Assembly (NCBI RefSeq): GCF_003790525.1
Contig: NZ_CP033635.1
Strand: one strand, 5' to 3'
DNA: 64,000 nucleotides
DNA from: Escherichia coli
GTDB taxonomy: Bacteria > Pseudomonadota > Gammaproteobacteria > Enterobacterales > Enterobacteriaceae
Shown here in pieces: positions 12,295 to 20,933 of the stretch (positions are counted from its first letter, which is position 1; each line of letters starts with the position of its first letter). The notes under the pieces were generated by a model. The model was not told the origin of the DNA. It worked only from the letters and a program-made list of their open reading frames with translations, and searched no databases. The position numbers and the translations under genes were made by a program.

Positions 12295-12336
12295 TAAACC
12301 TGTGGCGATTCAGTCTATTAAACCTGTGGCGATTCA
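12295..12336 (+). repeat. tandem direct repeat (2 x 18 bp TAAACCTGTGGCGATTCA, 24-bp period) upstream of hsdM
   Basis: Read directly from sequence at 12295-12312 and 12319-12336; possible operator/regulatory site. Confidence 0.6.
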
Positions 12337-12497
12337 CTTTATGGTGTCATAAACTTAAATCTAGCGCCGGGTAGAACAAGTTAATCGAACGATGTAGCGG
12401 CCATTTAGGCGTTACAGAAAGAACAGAATTTTAAATTTATAGTGAAGCCGTTGCAGCAACTTTGTGGGGTGCAACCAACACTGAACAGGAAAAGAAA

Positions 12498-14921
12498 ATG
12501 GATCATAGTGTACATAACAAGCTCATCTCATTTATTTGGAACATTGCCGACGACTGTTTACGTGATGTGTACGTTCGCGGTAAGTACCGCGATGTGATTT
12601 TACCTATGGTGGTATTACGACGTTTAGATACGTTACTTGAACCCACCAAAGAAGCCGTGCTTGAAGAGGTCAAGTTCCAAAAAGAAGAGATGCAAGCCAC
12701 GGAGCTTGATGATGAACCATTGAAGGCGGCTAGTGGTTATGTTTTTTACAATACATCTAAATGGACCCTGAAATCCCTGTTCAACACCGCAACGAATAAC
12801 CAACAGATATTACTCGCCAACTTTGAAGAGTACCTGCTTGGCTTTAGCGATAATGTTAAAGAAATCATTGAATGCTTTAACCTCAAGTCGCAAATTCGTC
12901 ACATGGCCTCAAAGCAAGTCCTTCTTGATGTCGTCGAAAAGTTTGTTTCCCCTTACATCAACTTAACTCATGAAACGATCGAAGACCCAGATGGCAACAA
13001 GATGCCAGCCCTTACTAACCTGGGTATGGGGTACGTGTTCGAAGAGTTGATCCGTAAGTTCAACGAGGAGAATAACGAAGAAGCCGGTGAGCACTTTACA
13101 CCTAGGGAAGTGATTGAGCTGATGACACACTTGGTTTTTGACCCAGTGAAAGAGCAGCTACCATTGACCATGACCGTTTACGACCCTGCGTGTGGTAGCG
13201 GTGGTATGCTCACTGAATCTCAAAACTTCATTGAAGAGAAATACCCGAACGACAGCCGAGATATTTACCTTTACGGCAAAGAGATCAATGACGAGACCTA
13301 CGCGATTTGTAAATCGGACATGATGATCAAAGGTAACAACCCTGAGAACATCAAGGTAGGCTCAACCTTGTCTACCGACGAGTTTGCGGCTTCTCGCTTT
13401 GACTTTATGTTGTCTAACCCGCCATACGGTAAGAGTTGGGCGTCTGAACAGAAGCATATTAAAGACGGTAGTGACGTGATTGACCCACGTTTTAAGGTTA
13501 GCCTGAAAGACTATTGGGGAAATCTCGAAGTGGTGGATGCCACGCCACGTTCAAGTGATGGCCAGCTGCTCTTTTTAATGGAAATGGTCAACAAGATGAA
13601 AGATCCGAGCGTAAGCCCATTAGGCAGCCGGATTGCTTCTGTTCATAACGGCTCATCGCTCTTTACCGGTGATGCGGGCGGTGGCGAAAGTAACATTCGT
13701 CGCTTCATCATTGAAAACGACATGCTAGATGCCATCGTTCAGTTACCAAATAACCTGTTCTACAACACCGGCATTACCACTTACATTTGGGTGTTGAACA
13801 ACAATAAACCTGAGGCACGTAAAGGTAAGGTGCAACTGATTGATGCCAGCTTGCTATACCGTAAGTTGCGTAAGAACTTAGGTAACAAAAACTGCGAATT
13901 TGCGCCTGAGCACATCACGGAAATCACCGATACTTACCTCGCGTGTGTGGACGTTGAAAGAGCACTTGATGCAAACAATGATCCTATCGGTATCGCCAGT
14001 AAGGTCTTTAGTAATGACGACTTTGGCTACTACAAAGTCACTATCGAGCGCCCAGATCGCCGCAAAGCCAAGTTTACTCAAGATGCCATAGCCCCACTGC
14101 GTTTTGATAAGCAACTTAGTGAAGTGATGGAGTACGTGTACGCAGAGCACGGCGAACGTGTTTACGAAAAAACTGGCTACGGGTCAGATCAGAAAAAGAG
14201 CTTCTTAAAATCCATCGAGAAAGACATTCTTTCTTGGTGTGAAGATAACGACATCAGTCTCAATGCTAAGGCTAAGGCCAAACTGCTTGATGTGAAACAC
14301 TGGCTGGCGCTAAAAGCATTGCTTGAAACTGCACAAACGCTGATGGCTGACATCGGTAGCATTGAATTTGATGACTTCAATAGCTTTAAAACCCAAGTTG
14401 ATAAATCGCTAAAAGCCCATGCTATTAAGCTTTCAGCACCTGAGAAAAATGCCATTCTTCACGCGGTGAGCTGGTATGACGAAACCGCCAAGAAAGTGGT
14501 TAAAAAGGTAGTTAAATTAACGGGTGATAAATTAAACGACCTGCTGGAGCGCTATGAGTGTGAAGTCGCTGACTTGCCAGATTTTGGTTATTACCCCGTT
14601 CCTTCAGCAGAAGGCGGTAAAAAAGGCGAGTATATCACTTACGAGACCAATTCAGACCTGCGAGATACAGAATCTGTTCCATTAAAGCAAAGCATTTACC
14701 AGTACTTCCTAGATGAAGTGAAGCCTCATGTCGATGAAGCATGGATAAACCTAGATACGGTAAAAATTGGCTATGAAATCAGCTTCAATAAGTATTTCTA
14801 CCGTCATAAACCGCTGCGTAGTTTAGAAGAGGTCGCAACCGACATCATCAACCTAGAACAAAAAGCCGAAGGTTTGATTGCGCAGATTCTTGGTGCGGAA
14901 GTAAAAAAGGTTCAGGGGTAA
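12498..14921 (+). CDS. hsdM: Type I restriction-modification system, methyltransferase subunit HsdM (long form with C-terminal extension)
   Basis: N6-adenine MTase motifs DPACGSGGML (motif I) and NPPYG (motif IV); ATG 12498 with RBS AGGAAAAG preferred over TTG 12462. Confidence 0.85.
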   Translation: MDHSVHNKLISFIWNIADDCLRDVYVRGKYRDVILPMVVLRRLDTLLEPTKEAVLEEVKFQKEEMQATELDDEPLKAASGYVFYNTSKWTLKSLFNTATNNQQILLANFEEYLLGFSDNVKEIIECFNLKSQIRHMASKQVLLDVVEKFVSPYINLTHETIEDPDGNKMPALTNLGMGYVFEELIRKFNEENNEEAGEHFTPREVIELMTHLVFDPVKEQLPLTMTVYDPACGSGGMLTESQNFIEEKYPNDSRDIYLYGKEINDETYAICKSDMMIKGNNPENIKVGSTLSTDEFAASRFDFMLSNPPYGKSWASEQKHIKDGSDVIDPRFKVSLKDYWGNLEVVDATPRSSDGQLLFLMEMVNKMKDPSVSPLGSRIASVHNGSSLFTGDAGGGESNIRRFIIENDMLDAIVQLPNNLFYNTGITTYIWVLNNNKPEARKGKVQLIDASLLYRKLRKNLGNKNCEFAPEHITEITDTYLACVDVERALDANNDPIGIASKVFSNDDFGYYKVTIERPDRRKAKFTQDAIAPLRFDKQLSEVMEYVYAEHGERVYEKTGYGSDQKKSFLKSIEKDILSWCEDNDISLNAKAKAKLLDVKHWLALKALLETAQTLMADIGSIEFDDFNSFKTQVDKSLKAHAIKLSAPEKNAILHAVSWYDETAKKVVKKVVKLTGDKLNDLLERYECEVADLPDFGYYPVPSAEGGKKGEYITYETNSDLRDTESVPLKQSIYQYFLDEVKPHVDEAWINLDTVKIGYEISFNKYFYRHKPLRSLEEVATDIINLEQKAEGLIAQILGAEVKKVQG

Positions 14922-14927
14922 GTCGTT

Positions 14928-16238
14928 ATGATGAAGATTTCTGAAATGCCGAAATATGACGATTATGTAGATTCTGGGGTTGAATGGTTGGGACGAGTAC
15001 CTGCTTCTTGGGAATTAACACGATTAGGCACTCGCTTTAATGAGCGTAGATCTAAAGTTTCAGACATTGACTACCCCGCACTCTCCGTAACAAAAAAAGG
15101 CGTTCTACCTCAATTAGATAATGCGGCCAAAACAAAAGATGGCGATAACAGAAAGCTAGTAAAAGAGGGTGACTTTGTTATAAATAGCCGCTCTGATCGG
15201 AAAGGTTCTAGTGGAGTATCTGACAGAGATGGATCAGTATCGCTTATAAATATAGTGCTTAAACCAAAAGGGATTCATCCAAAGTTTTCTGAGCATCTTT
15301 TGAAAAGTCATGCATTTATTGAGGAATACTATCGTGTTGGACGTGGAATTGTCGCAGATTTGTGGACTACTCGATACGATGAAATGCGGACGATTACTAT
15401 ATCTGTTCCTTCACTAGAAGAGCAAACCCGTATCGCCAACTTCCTAGACAAGAAAACCGCTCTAATCGACGAAGCGATTTCGATCAAAGAAAAGCAAATT
15501 AATCTGTTAAAAGAACATAAGCAGATCATCATCCAACAGGCGGTGACCCAAGGGCTTGATCCCAATGTGCCAATGAAAGACTCCGGTGTGGATTGGATTG
15601 GAGATATTCCAGAGCATTGGGAAGTTGTGCCTCTAAAAAGGTTGGCGGTCTTGAGCCCTTCTGTGAAAGTTTCAAATAGAAAGTCCAAAGAATTAGTTAC
15701 TTTCTTAGCGATGGAAAAGGTTTCAACAGATGGATTTATTGATCAAGATACATTAATGCCTATATGTGATGTGAGCCAAGGTTTTACGGTTTTTAACCGG
15801 GGGGATGTGATTGTTGCAAAAATTACACCTTGCTTTGAAAATGGGAAATCTGCTTGGCTTAACAATCTTCAAACTGAGTTTGGATACGGCTCAACCGAGT
15901 TTCACGTTTTAAGATGTGGTCAGAGAATTATAGGAAGTTTTCTCTACTTAATCGTTAGTTCGCCCCTTTTTCTTAATGCCGGTGAGGCTATGATGACTGG
16001 TTCAGCTGGTCAGAAGCGCGTGCCTAGTTCATTTATCCAAAACTTTCCTACCGCAATTCCCGGAGTTGCAGAGCAAGAAAAAATAGTATCAAAGGTAAAA
16101 GAGCTGTTTTCACAGATTGATGTTGTTGTGGCTTCTACGGTAAATCAAATCGAAAAGCTCAAAGAATACAAAACCACCCTGATCAACAGCGCCGTGACAG
16201 GAAAAATAAAAATCACCCCAGAAATGGTTGAGCAATAG
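14928..16238 (+). CDS. hsdS: Type I restriction-modification system, specificity subunit HsdS
   Basis: 436 aa, two-TRD architecture with conserved central and C-terminal helical regions; 6-bp gap after hsdM. Confidence 0.8.
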   Translation: MMKISEMPKYDDYVDSGVEWLGRVPASWELTRLGTRFNERRSKVSDIDYPALSVTKKGVLPQLDNAAKTKDGDNRKLVKEGDFVINSRSDRKGSSGVSDRDGSVSLINIVLKPKGIHPKFSEHLLKSHAFIEEYYRVGRGIVADLWTTRYDEMRTITISVPSLEEQTRIANFLDKKTALIDEAISIKEKQINLLKEHKQIIIQQAVTQGLDPNVPMKDSGVDWIGDIPEHWEVVPLKRLAVLSPSVKVSNRKSKELVTFLAMEKVSTDGFIDQDTLMPICDVSQGFTVFNRGDVIVAKITPCFENGKSAWLNNLQTEFGYGSTEFHVLRCGQRIIGSFLYLIVSSPLFLNAGEAMMTGSAGQKRVPSSFIQNFPTAIPGVAEQEKIVSKVKELFSQIDVVVASTVNQIEKLKEYKTTLINSAVTGKIKITPEMVEQ

Positions 16239-16247
16239 GAAGCGAAT

Positions 16248-17411
16248 ATGTTCACGGTAAATTATCAGACCAACAGGATTAGTCCGGTTAAGACGAAGAG
16301 ATTCAGTGAGTTGGGCTTTACTGAGCGCAAAAATCTTCAGGAATGGTTGGCACACGAGCCTTCCGCACTGGGTGAAGAGCTGCTGATTATTCAAAAAGAG
16401 TTCGATGGCTTTGATGACACCCGTGAACGCTTAGATTTACTGGCACTGGATAAAGATGGCAACTTGGTCATTATTGAAAACAAGCTGGACGATAGTGGCC
16501 GCGATGTGGTGTGGCAGGCGCTTAAATATGCCTCCTACTGCGCAAGTTTAACCAAAGCGCAAATCGTTGAAATTTACCAGCAGTACTTAGACCGCTATGA
16601 GCCTGTAACAGGAGAGGTTGACTTGTTTAATACCCCTGCAAGTGCCTCTGCTAGAATATGTGAGTTTTTGGATGCGCCCGATCTCGATGAGTTAAAGCTC
16701 AACCTGGGTAACAGCCAGCGCATTATGTTAGTTGCGGCAAACTTTCGCAAAGAAGTGACCAGCACCGCGCTGTGGTTATTGGGTCAAGGCATTAGCATTG
16801 CCTGCTTCAAAATCACGCCTTATTCACTGGGTGAACAGCTACTGATTAATATTGACCAGATCATTCCAACGCCAGAAGCGAAAGAGTTGATGATCGGCAT
16901 TAATGCCAAGGAAGCGGAAGAAAAAACCACCGAAGTGGTACTAAAAAACCGCCATACCGTGCGTCGCGAGTACTGGGAGCGTGCCTTAGAGGCGTTTCAG
17001 AAAAGCTCTTGCCAACTCTATAACAACATTAGCCCAAGCAAAGATCATTGGTTATCAGCAGGCTCAGGGCTAAGTGGATGTCCGTATAACCTGATATTTC
17101 TGCAAAAAGAGCTTCGAGTAGAGCTTTGGATCAGCCGTGGGGTTACCGAAGAGAATAAATACCTTTTTGATTTGTTGAGTCAGTCCAAACAAGACATTGA
17201 GCATACTTTTGGTGCAGAACTTGAGTGGATGAGGCTGGATGAGAAGAAATCTTGCCGTATCCAGTTTTCGACCAAAGCTGACGGGTTTAACAAAGAGACT
17301 TGGCCCCAAGCGGTTGCGTGGCACTTAGAGCAGATGACAAAGTTAGAAAAAGCCTTAAAAGGACCGCTGCAAAAAGCGGCTGAGGCAATGAAACAGAAGA
17401 ATTTTGATTAA
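16248..17411 (+). CDS. uncharacterised protein embedded in the Type I R-M operon; N-terminal RecB-like PD-(D/E)xK nuclease signature, C-terminal region of unknown function
   Basis: 387 aa; motifs D63, E77-x-K79 (VIIENK), Q90-x3-Y94; no Walker A; RBS AGGAAG; 9 nt after hsdS stop, 14 nt before hsdR start. Confidence 0.55.
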   Translation: MFTVNYQTNRISPVKTKRFSELGFTERKNLQEWLAHEPSALGEELLIIQKEFDGFDDTRERLDLLALDKDGNLVIIENKLDDSGRDVVWQALKYASYCASLTKAQIVEIYQQYLDRYEPVTGEVDLFNTPASASARICEFLDAPDLDELKLNLGNSQRIMLVAANFRKEVTSTALWLLGQGISIACFKITPYSLGEQLLINIDQIIPTPEAKELMIGINAKEAEEKTTEVVLKNRHTVRREYWERALEAFQKSSCQLYNNISPSKDHWLSAGSGLSGCPYNLIFLQKELRVELWISRGVTEENKYLFDLLSQSKQDIEHTFGAELEWMRLDEKKSCRIQFSTKADGFNKETWPQAVAWHLEQMTKLEKALKGPLQKAAEAMKQKNFD

Positions 17412-17425
17412 GGGAATTTACAATT

Positions 17426-20400
17426 ATGGTCAGTCAAACCAATGAACAAGCATTAGAGTCGGCCATTGAGAAATGTCTGGCTGGGATCAGTACTGAAGAG
17501 CTTAAAGAGGGACTGAGTCAGCAGTCACTGGGTGCTGGATACTTCATTGGTGCTGCTAGTGACTTTAATATGCAATATGCCATTGATGAACGTTTTTTCT
17601 GGCAATTTCTGCAAAAGACACAAGAAGTAGAGTTGGCCAAACTGCAAAAGAACAACCCCTCAGATTGGCAACGTAAGTTACTCGAACGATTTGACCGACT
17701 GATTAAGAAGCATGGCATTCTTCATTTACTTAAGAAAGGGCTAAGCGTAGACGATGCTCATTTCAATTTGCTCTATCCAGCCCCTTTGGCAAGTAGTAGT
17801 GAGAAGGTAAAGCAAAACTTTGCAGATAACGTGTTTAGTTGTACTCGCCAAGTGCGCTATTCCATGGTAAATCCCCTACAAGAAATCGACATGGTATTGT
17901 TTATCAACGGAATACCCTTGATAACGCTGGAGTTGAAGAACGCATGGACCGGGCAAACAGCACGTTATCACGGCCAAAAGCAGTATCGAGATGATCGGGA
18001 TGCAACTCAGCCATTGCTGACCTTTGGCCGCTGCCTAGTGCATATGGCGGTCGATACCGACGAAGTGTATATGACCACCAAGTTATCAGGTAGCAGTACA
18101 TTCTTCTTGCCGTTCAATAAAGGTCACAATCTTGGACAAGGCAACCCGCCGAATCCATCTGGCCATAAAACGGCATACCTATGGCAAGAAGTATTCACTA
18201 AAGACAGCTTGGCGAATATTATTCAGCATTTTGTGCGTCTGGATGGGTCAAGCAAAGATCCATTACCAAAGCGAACCCTGTTCTTTCCTCGATACCATCA
18301 ATTGGATGTGGTGAGAAAATTAGTAGACCATGCCGCCCAGCACGGTGTCGGTCAGACTTACTTAATTCAACACTCAGCCGGTTCAGGTAAGTCTAACTCG
18401 ATTACCTGGGCAGCTTATCAGCTAATTGAAACCTATCCTGCTTCGTCTGATGTGGCAGGCGGAAAAAGCTTGGAGCAGCCGTTGTTTGACTCTGTGATTG
18501 TGGTCACCGATAGACGCCTATTGGACAAGCAGCTGCGGGATAACATTAAAGAGTTTTCTGAAGTAAAGAACATTATTGCCCCAGCGAATAAGTCTTCTGA
18601 GCTTAAGCAGGCGCTGGAGAATGGCAAAAAGATTATTATAACGACGATTCAGAAATTCCCGTTCATTATTGATGGTATCGCCGATCTTAGTGACAAGCGC
18701 TTTGCAGTGATCATCGATGAAGCACACAGCTCACAGTCTGGTTCGGCGCATGACAATATGAACCGAGCGATGGGCAAGTCTGAAGTCGAAGAGGCAGAAG
18801 ATGCTCAGGATAAAATCCTTCAGGCGATGAGATCGCGTAAGATGCGCGGGAATGCGTCGTACCTGGCATTTACAGCGACACCAAAAAACAGCACTTTGGA
18901 GAAATTTGGTCAACGCCAAGAAGATGGCTCTTACAAGCCGTTTCACTTGTATTCGATGAAACAAGCCATTGAAGAAGGCTTCATCTTGGATGTGCTGGCA
19001 AATTATACGACGTACAAAAGTTATTATGAGATTGAGAAATCAATTGCTGATAACCCTGAGTTTGATACCAAAAAGGCGCAGAAAAAACTCAGAGCTTATG
19101 TAGAACGAAGCCAGCAAACAATTGATATCAAGGCAGAGATTATGCTGGAGCATTTTGTTCCGCATGTCGTGAATACGAAAAAGCTCAAAGGTAAAGGTAA
19201 AGGAATGGTGGTCACTCAAAATATTGAGGCGGCCATTCGATACTACAAAGCGATAAGGCGAATACTTGAGGAGCAAGGAAACCCGTTTAAAGTTGCCATT
19301 GCTTTCTCAGGAACCAAAGAAGTTGATGGTATTGAATATACCGAAGCAGATATTAATGGTTTTGCCGAGTCAGATACCAAAGATATGTTTGATACCGATG
19401 AGTATCGACTTTTAGTGGTTGCTAACAAGTATCTGACTGGGTTTGACCAGCCTAAGCTTTGCGCCATGTATGTAGATAAGAAGCTCGCCAGTGTCTTGTG
19501 TGTTCAGGCGCTATCTAGGCTCAATCGCAGTGCACCTAAGCTAGGGAAGAAAACAGAAGACTTGTTTATCCTGGATTTTTTCAACTCGGTTGAAGATATT
19601 CAATCAGCATTCGATCCTTTCTATACAGCAACGTCATTGTCCCAAGCTACAGATATAAACGTACTGCACGAGTTGAAAGATGAAATGGACGATGTCGGTG
19701 TGTACGAGTGGTATGAAGTTGAAGACTTTGTGACGCGTTATTTCAAGAATGAAGACGCCCAAACACTCAGTCCAATCATTGATATTGCCGCAGCGCGGTT
19801 TGACCATGAACTAGATCTTGAAGCTGAAGCTAAAGTGGACTTTAAGATTAAAGCCAAACAGTTCGTTAAAATCTATGGGCAGATGGCTTCTATCATGCCT
19901 TATGAAATGGTCAGCTGGGAAAAACTGTTTTGGTTCCTGAAGTTTTTAATACCGAAATTGAAAGTGGAAGATCCCGATGCTGATGCTATTGATGAGCTTC
20001 TCGATTCTGTCGATCTGAGTTCATACGGTTTGCAACGTGTGAAGCTTAACCACAGCATTAAACTTAGTGACCAAGAAGCGGAGCTTGATCCTCAAAATCC
20101 GAACCCACGTGGGGTGCATGGCGGTGAAAAAGAAACTGACCCGCTGGATGAAATCATTCGCACATTTAATGAGCGATGGTTCCAGGGCTGGAGTGCCACA
20201 CCTGAAGAGCAAAAGGTTAAGTTCGTGAACATCGCTGAAAGTATCCGCAATCACCCTGACTTCGAATCGAAATACAAAAACAACCCAGATCCCCATAATC
20301 GAGATTTGGCCTTCGAAAAAATGCTCAAGGAAATCATGCTGCAACGCCGTAAAGATGAACTTGAGCTCTACAAGTTGTTCGCAGGAGATTCAGCATTTAA

Positions 20401-20443
20401 AGCCTCGTGGACGCAAAGTATGCAACGAATGGTAGGTAGGTAG
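17426..20443 (+). CDS. hsdR: Type I restriction enzyme, endonuclease/translocase subunit HsdR
   Basis: 1005 aa; N-terminal PD-(D/E)xK (DMVLFINGIPLITLELK), SF2 helicase motifs GSGKS and DEAH. Confidence 0.85.
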   Translation: MVSQTNEQALESAIEKCLAGISTEELKEGLSQQSLGAGYFIGAASDFNMQYAIDERFFWQFLQKTQEVELAKLQKNNPSDWQRKLLERFDRLIKKHGILHLLKKGLSVDDAHFNLLYPAPLASSSEKVKQNFADNVFSCTRQVRYSMVNPLQEIDMVLFINGIPLITLELKNAWTGQTARYHGQKQYRDDRDATQPLLTFGRCLVHMAVDTDEVYMTTKLSGSSTFFLPFNKGHNLGQGNPPNPSGHKTAYLWQEVFTKDSLANIIQHFVRLDGSSKDPLPKRTLFFPRYHQLDVVRKLVDHAAQHGVGQTYLIQHSAGSGKSNSITWAAYQLIETYPASSDVAGGKSLEQPLFDSVIVVTDRRLLDKQLRDNIKEFSEVKNIIAPANKSSELKQALENGKKIIITTIQKFPFIIDGIADLSDKRFAVIIDEAHSSQSGSAHDNMNRAMGKSEVEEAEDAQDKILQAMRSRKMRGNASYLAFTATPKNSTLEKFGQRQEDGSYKPFHLYSMKQAIEEGFILDVLANYTTYKSYYEIEKSIADNPEFDTKKAQKKLRAYVERSQQTIDIKAEIMLEHFVPHVVNTKKLKGKGKGMVVTQNIEAAIRYYKAIRRILEEQGNPFKVAIAFSGTKEVDGIEYTEADINGFAESDTKDMFDTDEYRLLVVANKYLTGFDQPKLCAMYVDKKLASVLCVQALSRLNRSAPKLGKKTEDLFILDFFNSVEDIQSAFDPFYTATSLSQATDINVLHELKDEMDDVGVYEWYEVEDFVTRYFKNEDAQTLSPIIDIAAARFDHELDLEAEAKVDFKIKAKQFVKIYGQMASIMPYEMVSWEKLFWFLKFLIPKLKVEDPDADAIDELLDSVDLSSYGLQRVKLNHSIKLSDQEAELDPQNPNPRGVHGGEKETDPLDEIIRTFNERWFQGWSATPEEQKVKFVNIAESIRNHPDFESKYKNNPDPHNRDLAFEKMLKEIMLQRRKDELELYKLFAGDSAFKASWTQSMQRMVGR

Positions 20444-20461
20444 GTAGAAAGGAGTGATGGT

Positions 20462-20590
20462 TTGCTGAAGGCAGTCTCAGAGTTATTAGGTGGGTCACCA
20501 GGCCTGAAAGGACGTCAAATTGCCAAGGAGCTGGGGCTGGATAAGTCACAAGTGAACTCGTTTCTTCACAAACACCAGGATACGTTTTGA
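20462..20590 (+). pseudogene. truncated small ORF (winged-HTH-like) downstream of hsdR, ended by the terminal TGA of the IS911 left end
   Basis: RBS AAAGGAG then TTG; encodes LLKAVSELLGGSPGLKGRQIAKELGLDKSQVNSFLHKHQDTF; stop supplied by IS terminus at 20588-20590. Confidence 0.35.
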
Positions 20591-20933
20591 AGTGGCACAC
20601 TGAATTTGGCCACCTGAACAGAGGTGATATGCTCACCTCAGAACAACACAGGTGCTCCAATGAAAAAAAGAAATTTCAGCGCAGAGTTTAAACGCGAATC
20701 CGCTCAACTGGTTGTTGACCAGAACTACACGGTGGCAGATGTCGCCAAAGCTATGGATGTTGGCCTTTCCACAATGACAAGATGGGTCAAACAACTGCGT
20801 GATGAGCGTCAGGGCAAAACACCAAAAGCCTCTCCGATAACACCAGAACAAATCGAAATACGTGAGCTGAGGAAAAAGCTACAACGCATTGAAATGGAGA
20901 ATGAAATATTAAAAAAGGCTACTGTAGATTCAA
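20588..20933 (+). mobile_element. IS911-like element, 5' part (left IR and orfA), truncated by IS30
   Basis: Terminus TGAAGTGGCACACTGAATTTGGCCACC; Orf[52 protein letters not shown]... from ATG 20660, diverges after ...ILKKAT. Confidence 0.75.

Follow-up and report, generated by a model that had tools for sequence, protein, structure and literature searches.

A remnant of the regulator gene capK between a type I restriction-modification operon and an IS911 end in Escherichia coli

A reading frame of 42 native codons that lies immediately behind the type I restriction-modification (R-M) gene hsdR in Escherichia coli is very probably the dead 5′ remnant of capK, inert and truncated by the end of an IS911 element. 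The remnant occupies 20462..20587 on the plus strand of the 64-kb stretch of E. coli DNA analysed here (the window, in whose coordinates positions are given unless another sequence is named), and it encodes the three helices of an N-terminal HTH domain. The gene that was cut is capK of the CapK/CapS regulator pair, an assignment based on its CapS partner, its architecture, its context and the published description of the pair (PMC13373217). The capK family is already known and the stub is an ordinary pseudogene; the R-M module in front of it seems to have entered E. coli bracketed by IS911, as part of a larger defence block that Vibrio gigantis and Tolumonas carry as Tn7-like cargo.

The frame behind hsdR and its junction with IS911

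The hsdR gene (17426..20443, plus strand; stop codon TAG at 20441-20443) was located from the list of open reading frames and from the RefSeq annotation of identical E. coli loci. It is the last intact gene of a type I R-M operon with the order hsdM-hsdS-DUF4268-hsdR, and its product shares 97% amino acid identity with HsdR of V. gigantis. Direct reading of the sequence beyond the stop gives a ribosome-binding site, AAAGGAG (20448..20454, plus strand), which by alignment is also kept in V. gigantis and in the E. coli plasmid copy; 7 nt further on is the TTG (20462) with which the stub starts, 18 nt beyond the hsdR stop. The stub is in the same frame as hsdR, and one TAG stands between them in the window. 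Its final native codon, TTT (20585-20587), is followed directly by the stop codon TGA (20588..20590, plus strand), three bases that begin the IS911 left inverted repeat and open the IS911-end sequence TGAAGTGGCACACTGAATTTGGCCACC; the frame from 20462 to 20590 translates as LLKAVSELLGGSPGLKGRQIAKELGLDKSQVNSFLHKHQDTF, ending at that stop. A consensus scan for promoters and terminators showed no terminator-like site between hsdR and the stub, and the PGAP annotation of identical loci calls no gene at the stub frame.

The hsdR stop codon is contained in a (GGTA)4 run (20431-20446). Matches in E. coli to a 788-base query are 784, 788 and 792 bases long at this region, which suggests that the GGTA copy number varies among E. 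coli copies, and one aligned plasmid copy has a 4-bp gap in the run. Such variation leaves the HsdR C-terminus (MVGR, then the stop) intact and alters only the spacing to the capK ribosome-binding site.

The DNA beginning at the stop codon of the stub is a 5′ fragment of IS911 (nt 1-334; 20588..20922, plus strand) that comprises the left inverted repeat and most of orfA (ATG at 20660), and it is 98.5% identical to nt 1-334 of the RefSeq-annotated full-length IS911 of E. coli D3. The canonical left inverted repeat, TGAAGTGGCAC..., stands at the break and its terminal TGA provides the stop. A query spanning the junction gave 8,889 matches in 4,272 E. coli genomes, starting at query base 88/89, which corresponds to window 20587/20588. 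A preliminary description of this DNA had proposed a TTG-initiated frame with an AAAGGAG after the hsdR stop, closed by the terminal TGA of the IS911 left end at 20588-20590; the sequence reading and translation confirmed the former, and the alignment with IS911 the latter.

We searched plasmid records by tblastn with the 42-aa translation and found 40 of its 42 residues (95%; E = 4e-18) to be identical to residues 1-42 of WP_086714954.1, a 361-aa protein annotated as 'ATP-binding protein' and encoded on plasmid p1 of V. gigantis LMG 22741. This plasmid is the closest IS-free relative, and the frame there runs for 319 codons past codon 42. At the DNA level the stub is about 97% identical to V. 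gigantis, hsdM-hsdS-DUF4268-hsdR (window 12335-20591) is 92-95% identical to p1, and the homology with V. gigantis DNA (95% over 4.5 kb) ends at the IS boundary. The TTG in the window stands where the V. gigantis gene is annotated to start, and the N-termini of 35 aligned homologues fall there too; a database search returned 367 relatives of the full-length ∼360-aa protein at E ≤ 0.001. The gene lies right behind hsdR in V. gigantis (18 nt), Tolumonas, Budvicia, Acinetobacter and others; in these hsdR-adjacent loci it is always co-oriented, 14-153 nt downstream. The proposal in the preliminary description that the IS had cut a longer gene is thus borne out, since the fragment has a homologue on an IS-free plasmid in which the frame continues to 361 aa.

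With just 42 codons, a TTG start and no annotation in RefSeq, the frame at 20462-20587 could be taken for a chance ORF in the DNA between hsdR and the IS. The match of 40 of 42 residues to the N-terminus of a 361-aa protein, and a start position that is conserved across the family, leave that reading with practically no chance of being right, and on these sequence comparisons it may be regarded as already refuted.

The remainder of the gene was sought in several ways. Residues 43-361 of CapK have no match anywhere in the 64-kb window, and tblastn detected no capS, SAVED or CD-NTase homology in the same 64 kb. The missing capK DNA has no match in 5,426 complete E. coli genomes, even at blastn sensitivity, and these genomes likewise lack the capS and the presumed CBASS operon of this locus; tblastn of plasmids for the missing part returned solely V. 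gigantis and paralogues that are about 40% identical. No intact locus of this allele was found in E. coli or other enterobacteria.

Identity of the cut gene and its neighbours

The CapK/CapS pair ('controller of adjacent pathways') was described by Chambers, Rani, Min, Villa and Corbett (EMBO J 2026; PMC13373217). CapK is a DNA-damage-sensing serine kinase of roughly 360 aa with an HTH-STAS-GHKL architecture, and its activator is single-stranded DNA arising during DNA repair (PMC13373217). CapS is a STAS-wHTH repressor encoded directly 3′ of capK, whose conserved serine is phosphorylated by CapK; the phosphorylated CapS dimer dissociates and leaves TTAA-type palindromes, so that the immune operon 3′ of capS is de-repressed (PMC13373217).

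On V. gigantis p1 the cut gene is followed by genes for a 183-aa protein and a 57-aa protein and then by a CBASS operon. The 183-aa protein matches PDB entries 9Z72 and 9Z73, the crystal structures of V. cholerae CapS S58A, with E = 5e-115 and about 98% identity, the one notable difference being Ser58 in V. gigantis versus the engineered alanine of the crystal construct. This neighbour is CapS, and the cut gene is therefore capK. The identification was made through the partner protein and the literature, and no deposited CapK sequence was matched directly; PDB sequences searched with a profile of the CapK family gave no match. In every locus examined capS starts about 25-50 nt after capK, and its product has a C-terminal MarR-like wHTH, with MarR_2 as the only Pfam match.

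The full-length orthologue fits the HTH-STAS-GHKL architecture by Pfam, alignment motifs, AlphaFold and Foldseek; the window copy does not. Pfam gives only a weak HATPase_c match to the full-length orthologue (residues 205-312). The GHKL motifs are invariant in an alignment of 35 sequences: the N-box residues E210, N214 and H218, the G1 box D247-S-G-x-G251 and the G2 box G300-L-G302. W66 and N214, both invariant in the alignment, correspond to W68 and N218, the single-stranded DNA-binding tryptophan and the active-site asparagine of the kinase, whose function was tested in CapK of E. roggenkampii (PMC13373217). An AlphaFold model of the full-length orthologue, built on this alignment (mean pLDDT 88.3, pTM 0.85), has an N-terminal winged helix (helices 2-11, 17-24 and 28-37; strands 42-44 and 49-52), a middle alpha/beta domain and a C-terminal GHKL domain, and a Foldseek search of the PDB returned GHKL ATPase domains, with the best target-normalised TM-score, 0.62, for SpoIIAB (1til_E). 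The earlier characterization of the peptide as winged-HTH-like was right in substance: residues 1-52 of the modelled orthologue form three helices and a beta-hairpin wing. The window copy ends at residue 42, inside the HTH; it retains the three helices without the wing, the STAS domain or the GHKL kinase domain, and it also lacks W66, N214 and both the G1 and the G2 box.

We also considered the paraMORC-type 'two-component-like' R-M elements with HEF_HK and Response_reg_2 (PMC8011034), and rejected them, since Pfam gave neither HEF_HK nor HATPase_c_3 and the domains are arranged differently. When the full-length orthologue and its partner were scanned with NCBIfam and PADLOC, nothing above noise emerged; the PADLOC version used (v2, 2023) is older than the CapK/CapS description.

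The preliminary description had further suggested that the R-M operon may once have had the cut gene as its fifth member. To place capK in its genomic context we surveyed 60 loci, one genome per species, and used Hsd, CapS, CBASS, Bub and DUF4747 queries in tblastn to identify the genes around them. A capS gene follows capK in 54 of the 55 loci that have enough downstream sequence. Downstream sequence of at least 4.5 kb is available at 46 loci, of which 27 continue with a Bub-like operon (ubiquitin-like protein and ThiF E1), nine with CBASS, one with DUF4747 and nine with something else. Of the 42 loci whose upstream sequence is long enough, 17 have type I R-M genes (HsdR, HsdM) upstream on the capK strand, and 10 have them within 300 bp. 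Such genes are found within 1 kb upstream in six of the eight CBASS-downstream loci with enough upstream sequence, versus just two of 19 Bub-like loci, and all relatives with this R-M family carry CBASS behind capKS. On IncHI2 plasmids capK-capS heads a Bub-type operon and there is no R-M system upstream. The stub in the window is followed by IS911, IS30 and IS66 debris, with no immune operon and no capS.

Adjacency to hsdR is thus real and recurrent, and it is also in print, with 88 of 443 capKS loci (∼20%) reported to lie immediately 3′ of an R-M system (PMC13373217). Functionally, however, the suggestion of a fifth R-M gene is not supported: the association is with capS (54/55) rather than with R-M (17/42), and the known targets are downstream. 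Operon-like spacing and orientation are found in the closest relatives, although capK does not consistently co-occur with hsdR, hsdM and hsdS. The capK-capS pair, of which capK is the first gene, controls the operon 3′ of itself, as experiments have shown (PMC13373217), and not the R-M operon 5′ of it.

Could capK nevertheless be a genuine fifth component, or a dedicated controller-like HTH regulator of type I R-M expression or activity? It is on the same strand, 18 nt behind hsdR with no terminator-like site between, the arrangement is found behind three different type I R-M architectures, and R-M in 17 of 42 loci is far above chance; moreover, one database protein (P0009) joins an HsdR C-terminus in frame to CapK without its HTH, and the 88 of 443 published loci come with a suggested R-M coordination (PMC13373217). 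We nonetheless consider this unlikely. An R-M system is missing upstream at over half of the loci, the conserved copies on IncHI2 plasmids among them, the constant partners are capS and the downstream operon, the CapS targets that have been shown are promoters in the capK-capS and capS-downstream intergenic regions (PMC13373217), and 59 E. coli genomes hold an intact R-M operon without a full capK. A looser functional link between CapK/CapS and R-M may exist, along the lines of the speculation in PMC13373217 that CapK/CapS may coordinate an upstream front-line R-M system with a later, downstream abortive-infection system.

Two observations concern the neighbouring genes themselves. P0009 (616 aa, NCBI-derived, in 6 contigs) consists of an EcoR124_C HsdR C-terminal region fused to CapK from about residue 58; it may be a fusion of the two that arose naturally, or else an artefact of deletion. 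Between hsdS and hsdR, the DUF4268 gene (window 16248-17411) matches the PADLOC 'phage defence candidate' PDC-S11 with E = 4.5e-182; it is the conserved fourth gene of this R-M family, and an AAA_13 ATPase fills its slot in a second R-M family that precedes capK.

A further gene of the block is the one for a 57-aa basic protein (MATNPPSGDGHRNGAVKGRSQTQTPSGHWVKRD...FKGVRKEK), observed on V. gigantis p1 (L003, 13789-13962) and at 28 other loci. It follows capS in 29 of 55 loci, regardless of which immune operon comes next, and its product is mostly 80-100% identical where CapK is merely 40-50% identical. The ORF encodes a protein under strong purifying selection, because its first, second and third codon positions differ at rates of 0.17, 0.13 and 0.61; the same codon-position analysis ruled out an RNA element. 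The protein has no NCBIfam match, and a keyword search of the main text of PMC13373217 found no mention of it. In the gap between capS and this ORF on V. gigantis p1 (L003) are a TTAA-N10-TTAA motif (about 13681-13698) and TTAAATTAA (about 13765-13773). Short and AT-rich as they are, these resemble the published CapS operators and weakly suggest sites of that kind; if they are CapS operators, the 57-aa ORF would be the first CapS-regulated gene.

Insertion sequences, distribution and fate of the locus

The IS911 fragment behind the stub is interrupted at 20922/20923 by a minus-strand IS30 terminal repeat (TGTAGATTCAATCTGTCAATGC...). The IS30 copy is itself truncated and followed by IS66 fragments, giving nested IS debris, and RefSeq annotates identical loci as 'transposase, missing C-terminus' and then 'IS30 ... 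missing N-terminus'. At the other side of the R-M operon is an IS911-family 3′ fragment (nt 762-1248; 11782..12269, plus strand; 95.3% identity by blastn) that ends with the right inverted repeat, ...GACCACTTCA, and is called 'IS3 family transposase, missing N-terminus' in RefSeq. The 8.3-kb R-M segment (12270-20587) is thus bracketed by IS911-family fragments in direct orientation, and these look like the inner halves of a decayed composite transposon.

Just inside the left boundary are the last 16 codons of a WYL-domain gene (12334..12381, plus strand), which tblastn aligns to residues 292-307 of the V. gigantis protein with 87.5% identity; homology with V. gigantis DNA begins at window 12335, 65 bp past the IS911-family right end. 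The WYL gene (CapW/BrxR-like) is intact 5′ of hsdM in V. gigantis, Thalassotalea and Psychromonas loci, so that at its left edge, too, the segment has a cut gene. The R-M segment is accordingly flanked by a truncated regulator gene at each end, WYL and capK. The left boundary of the segment (TCTTAAATGACTC..., 12270) falls on an identical base whether IS911 flanks it, as in the chromosomal copies, or not, as in the plasmid copies; the plasmid boundary was read in L077 (pM160133_p3), at about 11700-11790. A 24-bp tandem duplication in the window (12294-12317 and 12318-12341) is absent from the plasmid.

Of 5,426 complete E. coli genomes 59 carry the stub, at 39 chromosomal and 20 plasmid places, and it is always truncated. 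The fragment is 100% conserved in 34 genomes. A shorter form with 27 native codons is found in 25 genomes, mostly on phage-plasmid-like replicons of ∼100-190 kb; it breaks at window 20540 and resumes in IS911 at nt 633 (plasmid pM160133_p3, L004 6086-6716). A 13-bp repeat, GAGCTGGGGCTGG, is common to the capK remnant (20528-20540) and IS911 (nt 620-632), and since the break falls inside this repeat the shorter form is a secondary microhomology deletion of the junction seen in the window. Two 'plasmid' records with the full 42-aa stub, CP101361.1 and NZ_MG591698.1, were considered as IS-free or circular forms and set aside, for they carry the same debris as the chromosomal island.

The 42-aa peptide could be transcribed and translated, given the ribosome-binding site and the lack of a terminator-like site after hsdR. 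The stub is most likely inert all the same, because every residue needed for CapK function is missing, and the shorter form shows it to be under no obvious constraint. We weighed whether an HTH-only peptide made from the hsd transcript might have a function of its own, such as DNA binding or interference with incoming CapK/CapS. The good ribosome-binding site, the conserved start, the uninterrupted path from hsdR and the 100% conservation in 34 genomes could all be cited for this, and deletion of the CapK HTH without effect in a reporter (PMC13373217) leaves room for a role of this kind. The conservation is explained, however, by recent common descent, as the flanking DNA is equally identical; a microhomology deletion has cost the second lineage 15 more codons with no apparent sign of constraint, the wHTH lacks its wing, and PGAP makes no call. 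Such a function is therefore very improbable. It is similarly hard to credit that the stub retains an HTH function such as docking on the R-M system or adjoining DNA, although if it did, a physical or regulatory tie of CapK to type I R-M would account for its survival by hsdR in 59 E. coli genomes; the P0009 fusion, which lacks the HTH, hints at a link of CapK with R-M. We retain the interpretation of the frame as a dead capK remnant.

Beside the anatomy, homology, context and fold described above, we infer an ancestral gene content and an order of events. The ancestral block would have consisted of a WYL regulator, hsdM-hsdS-DUF4268-hsdR, capK-capS, the 57-aa gene and CBASS, and a block of this composition is still present in V. 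gigantis, Budvicia and several other Proteobacteria. Judging from Vibrio, Tolumonas, Budvicia and metagenome-assembled genomes, the E. coli ancestor most probably carried capK-capS, the 57-aa gene and CBASS, the last being probable because this R-M arrangement goes with CBASS (6/8 versus 2/19) and all relatives with the same R-M system have it. An IS911 end would then have become joined to capK after codon 42, and a second IS911-family copy, in the same orientation, would have come to lie in the WYL gene tail, with the R-M operon and the two stubs surviving between them. The STAS and kinase domains of capK, capS and the presumed CBASS operon would have been lost, and the IS911 copy would later have been cut by IS30. 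The bracketing fits two insertions on either side of the R-M operon, which may have moved it as a composite unit.

The junction need not have arisen by simple insertion in situ. An adjacent deletion that started from an IS911 copy further downstream and reached codon 42, or capture of the R-M segment between two IS911 copies as a composite transposon in a donor, which then brought the already cut stub into E. coli, is a real if lesser possibility, one in keeping with the direct orientation of the IS911-family ends on both sides, the truncation of both the WYL gene and capK, the occurrence of the segment on E. coli chromosomes (39 places) as well as plasmids (20 places), and the absence of both the reciprocal junction and distal capK from all E. 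coli genomes searched. On the other hand, the two IS fragments come from parts of IS911 that do not overlap and are not equally close to the reference (95.3% versus 98.5% identity), so that their status as sisters is not demonstrable, and the plasmid copies share the boundary at ∼12270 without IS911 there, which a composite transposon does not predict. Simple insertion and adjacent deletion are not separable because the right end of the IS911 copy is gone. Metagenomes scanned for the reciprocal junction (IS911 right end, 0-8 nt, GTGAAAAA) gave at least 120 stretches; among the matches listed none has IS911 or capK homology, and the pattern is too permissive. A stricter pattern is TTGACCACTTCA followed by 3-4 nt and GTGAAAAACTCAAATCATGAATGG, with mismatches allowed.

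For annotation, the value of these results is that the unannotated frame after hsdR in 59 of 5,426 E. coli genomes can be recorded as a capK pseudogene. The stub marks the loss of capK-capS and, presumably, of a CBASS operon, with the type I R-M system kept. What is known of CapK, of R-M systems and of IS911 is unchanged by these results.

Comparison with known systems

Taken alone, the stub resembles the controller (C) proteins of R-M systems in being a small HTH protein beside R-M genes. C proteins, however, are complete Xre-type HTH dimers of ∼80 aa, usually of type II systems and encoded 5′ of the nuclease gene, whereas the stub comes from the N-terminal end of a 361-aa kinase and shows no homology to C proteins in NCBIfam and Pfam searches. 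Against a complete IS911, the window copy behind it is a 334-bp fragment whose right end and target duplication are gone.

CapW/BrxR (WYL) and CapH+CapP share the logic and niche of CapK/CapS, as DNA-damage or single-stranded DNA sensors located 5′ of CBASS, Bub and other immune operons, and a WYL gene of the CapW/BrxR type is the other truncated neighbour of the R-M segment. CapW/BrxR is a single-stranded DNA-binding repressor and CapH+CapP a protease-cleaved repressor; their folds and mechanisms are unrelated to the kinase-phosphorylated repressor of CapK. A structural parallel is given by the anti-sigma-factor kinase/STAS antagonist partner-switching modules SpoIIAB/SpoIIAA and RsbW/RsbV. 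The GHKL domain of the full-length orthologue is closest, by target-normalised TM-score, to SpoIIAB and has the N, G1 and G2 motifs, and the STAS domain of CapS bears a phospho-acceptor serine, as in SpoIIAA and RsbV. CapK differs from SpoIIAB and RsbW in having its own HTH and STAS domains and in acting with no sigma factor, its substrate being itself a DNA-binding repressor; no part corresponding to these modules remains in the window.

The closest likeness is to CapK itself, since the stub is identical at 40 of 42 residues to the HTH of a protein with CapK architecture and a CapS partner that shares ∼98% identity with the crystallised V. cholerae CapS, and the V. gigantis orthologue sits between type I R-M and CBASS, as reported for ∼20% of capKS loci (PMC13373217). 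The window stub differs in having no STAS or kinase domain, no capS and no downstream immune operon, and it cannot act as CapK. The locus is thus a natural case of the published arrangement of R-M, capKS and abortive infection that has been dismantled by IS elements.
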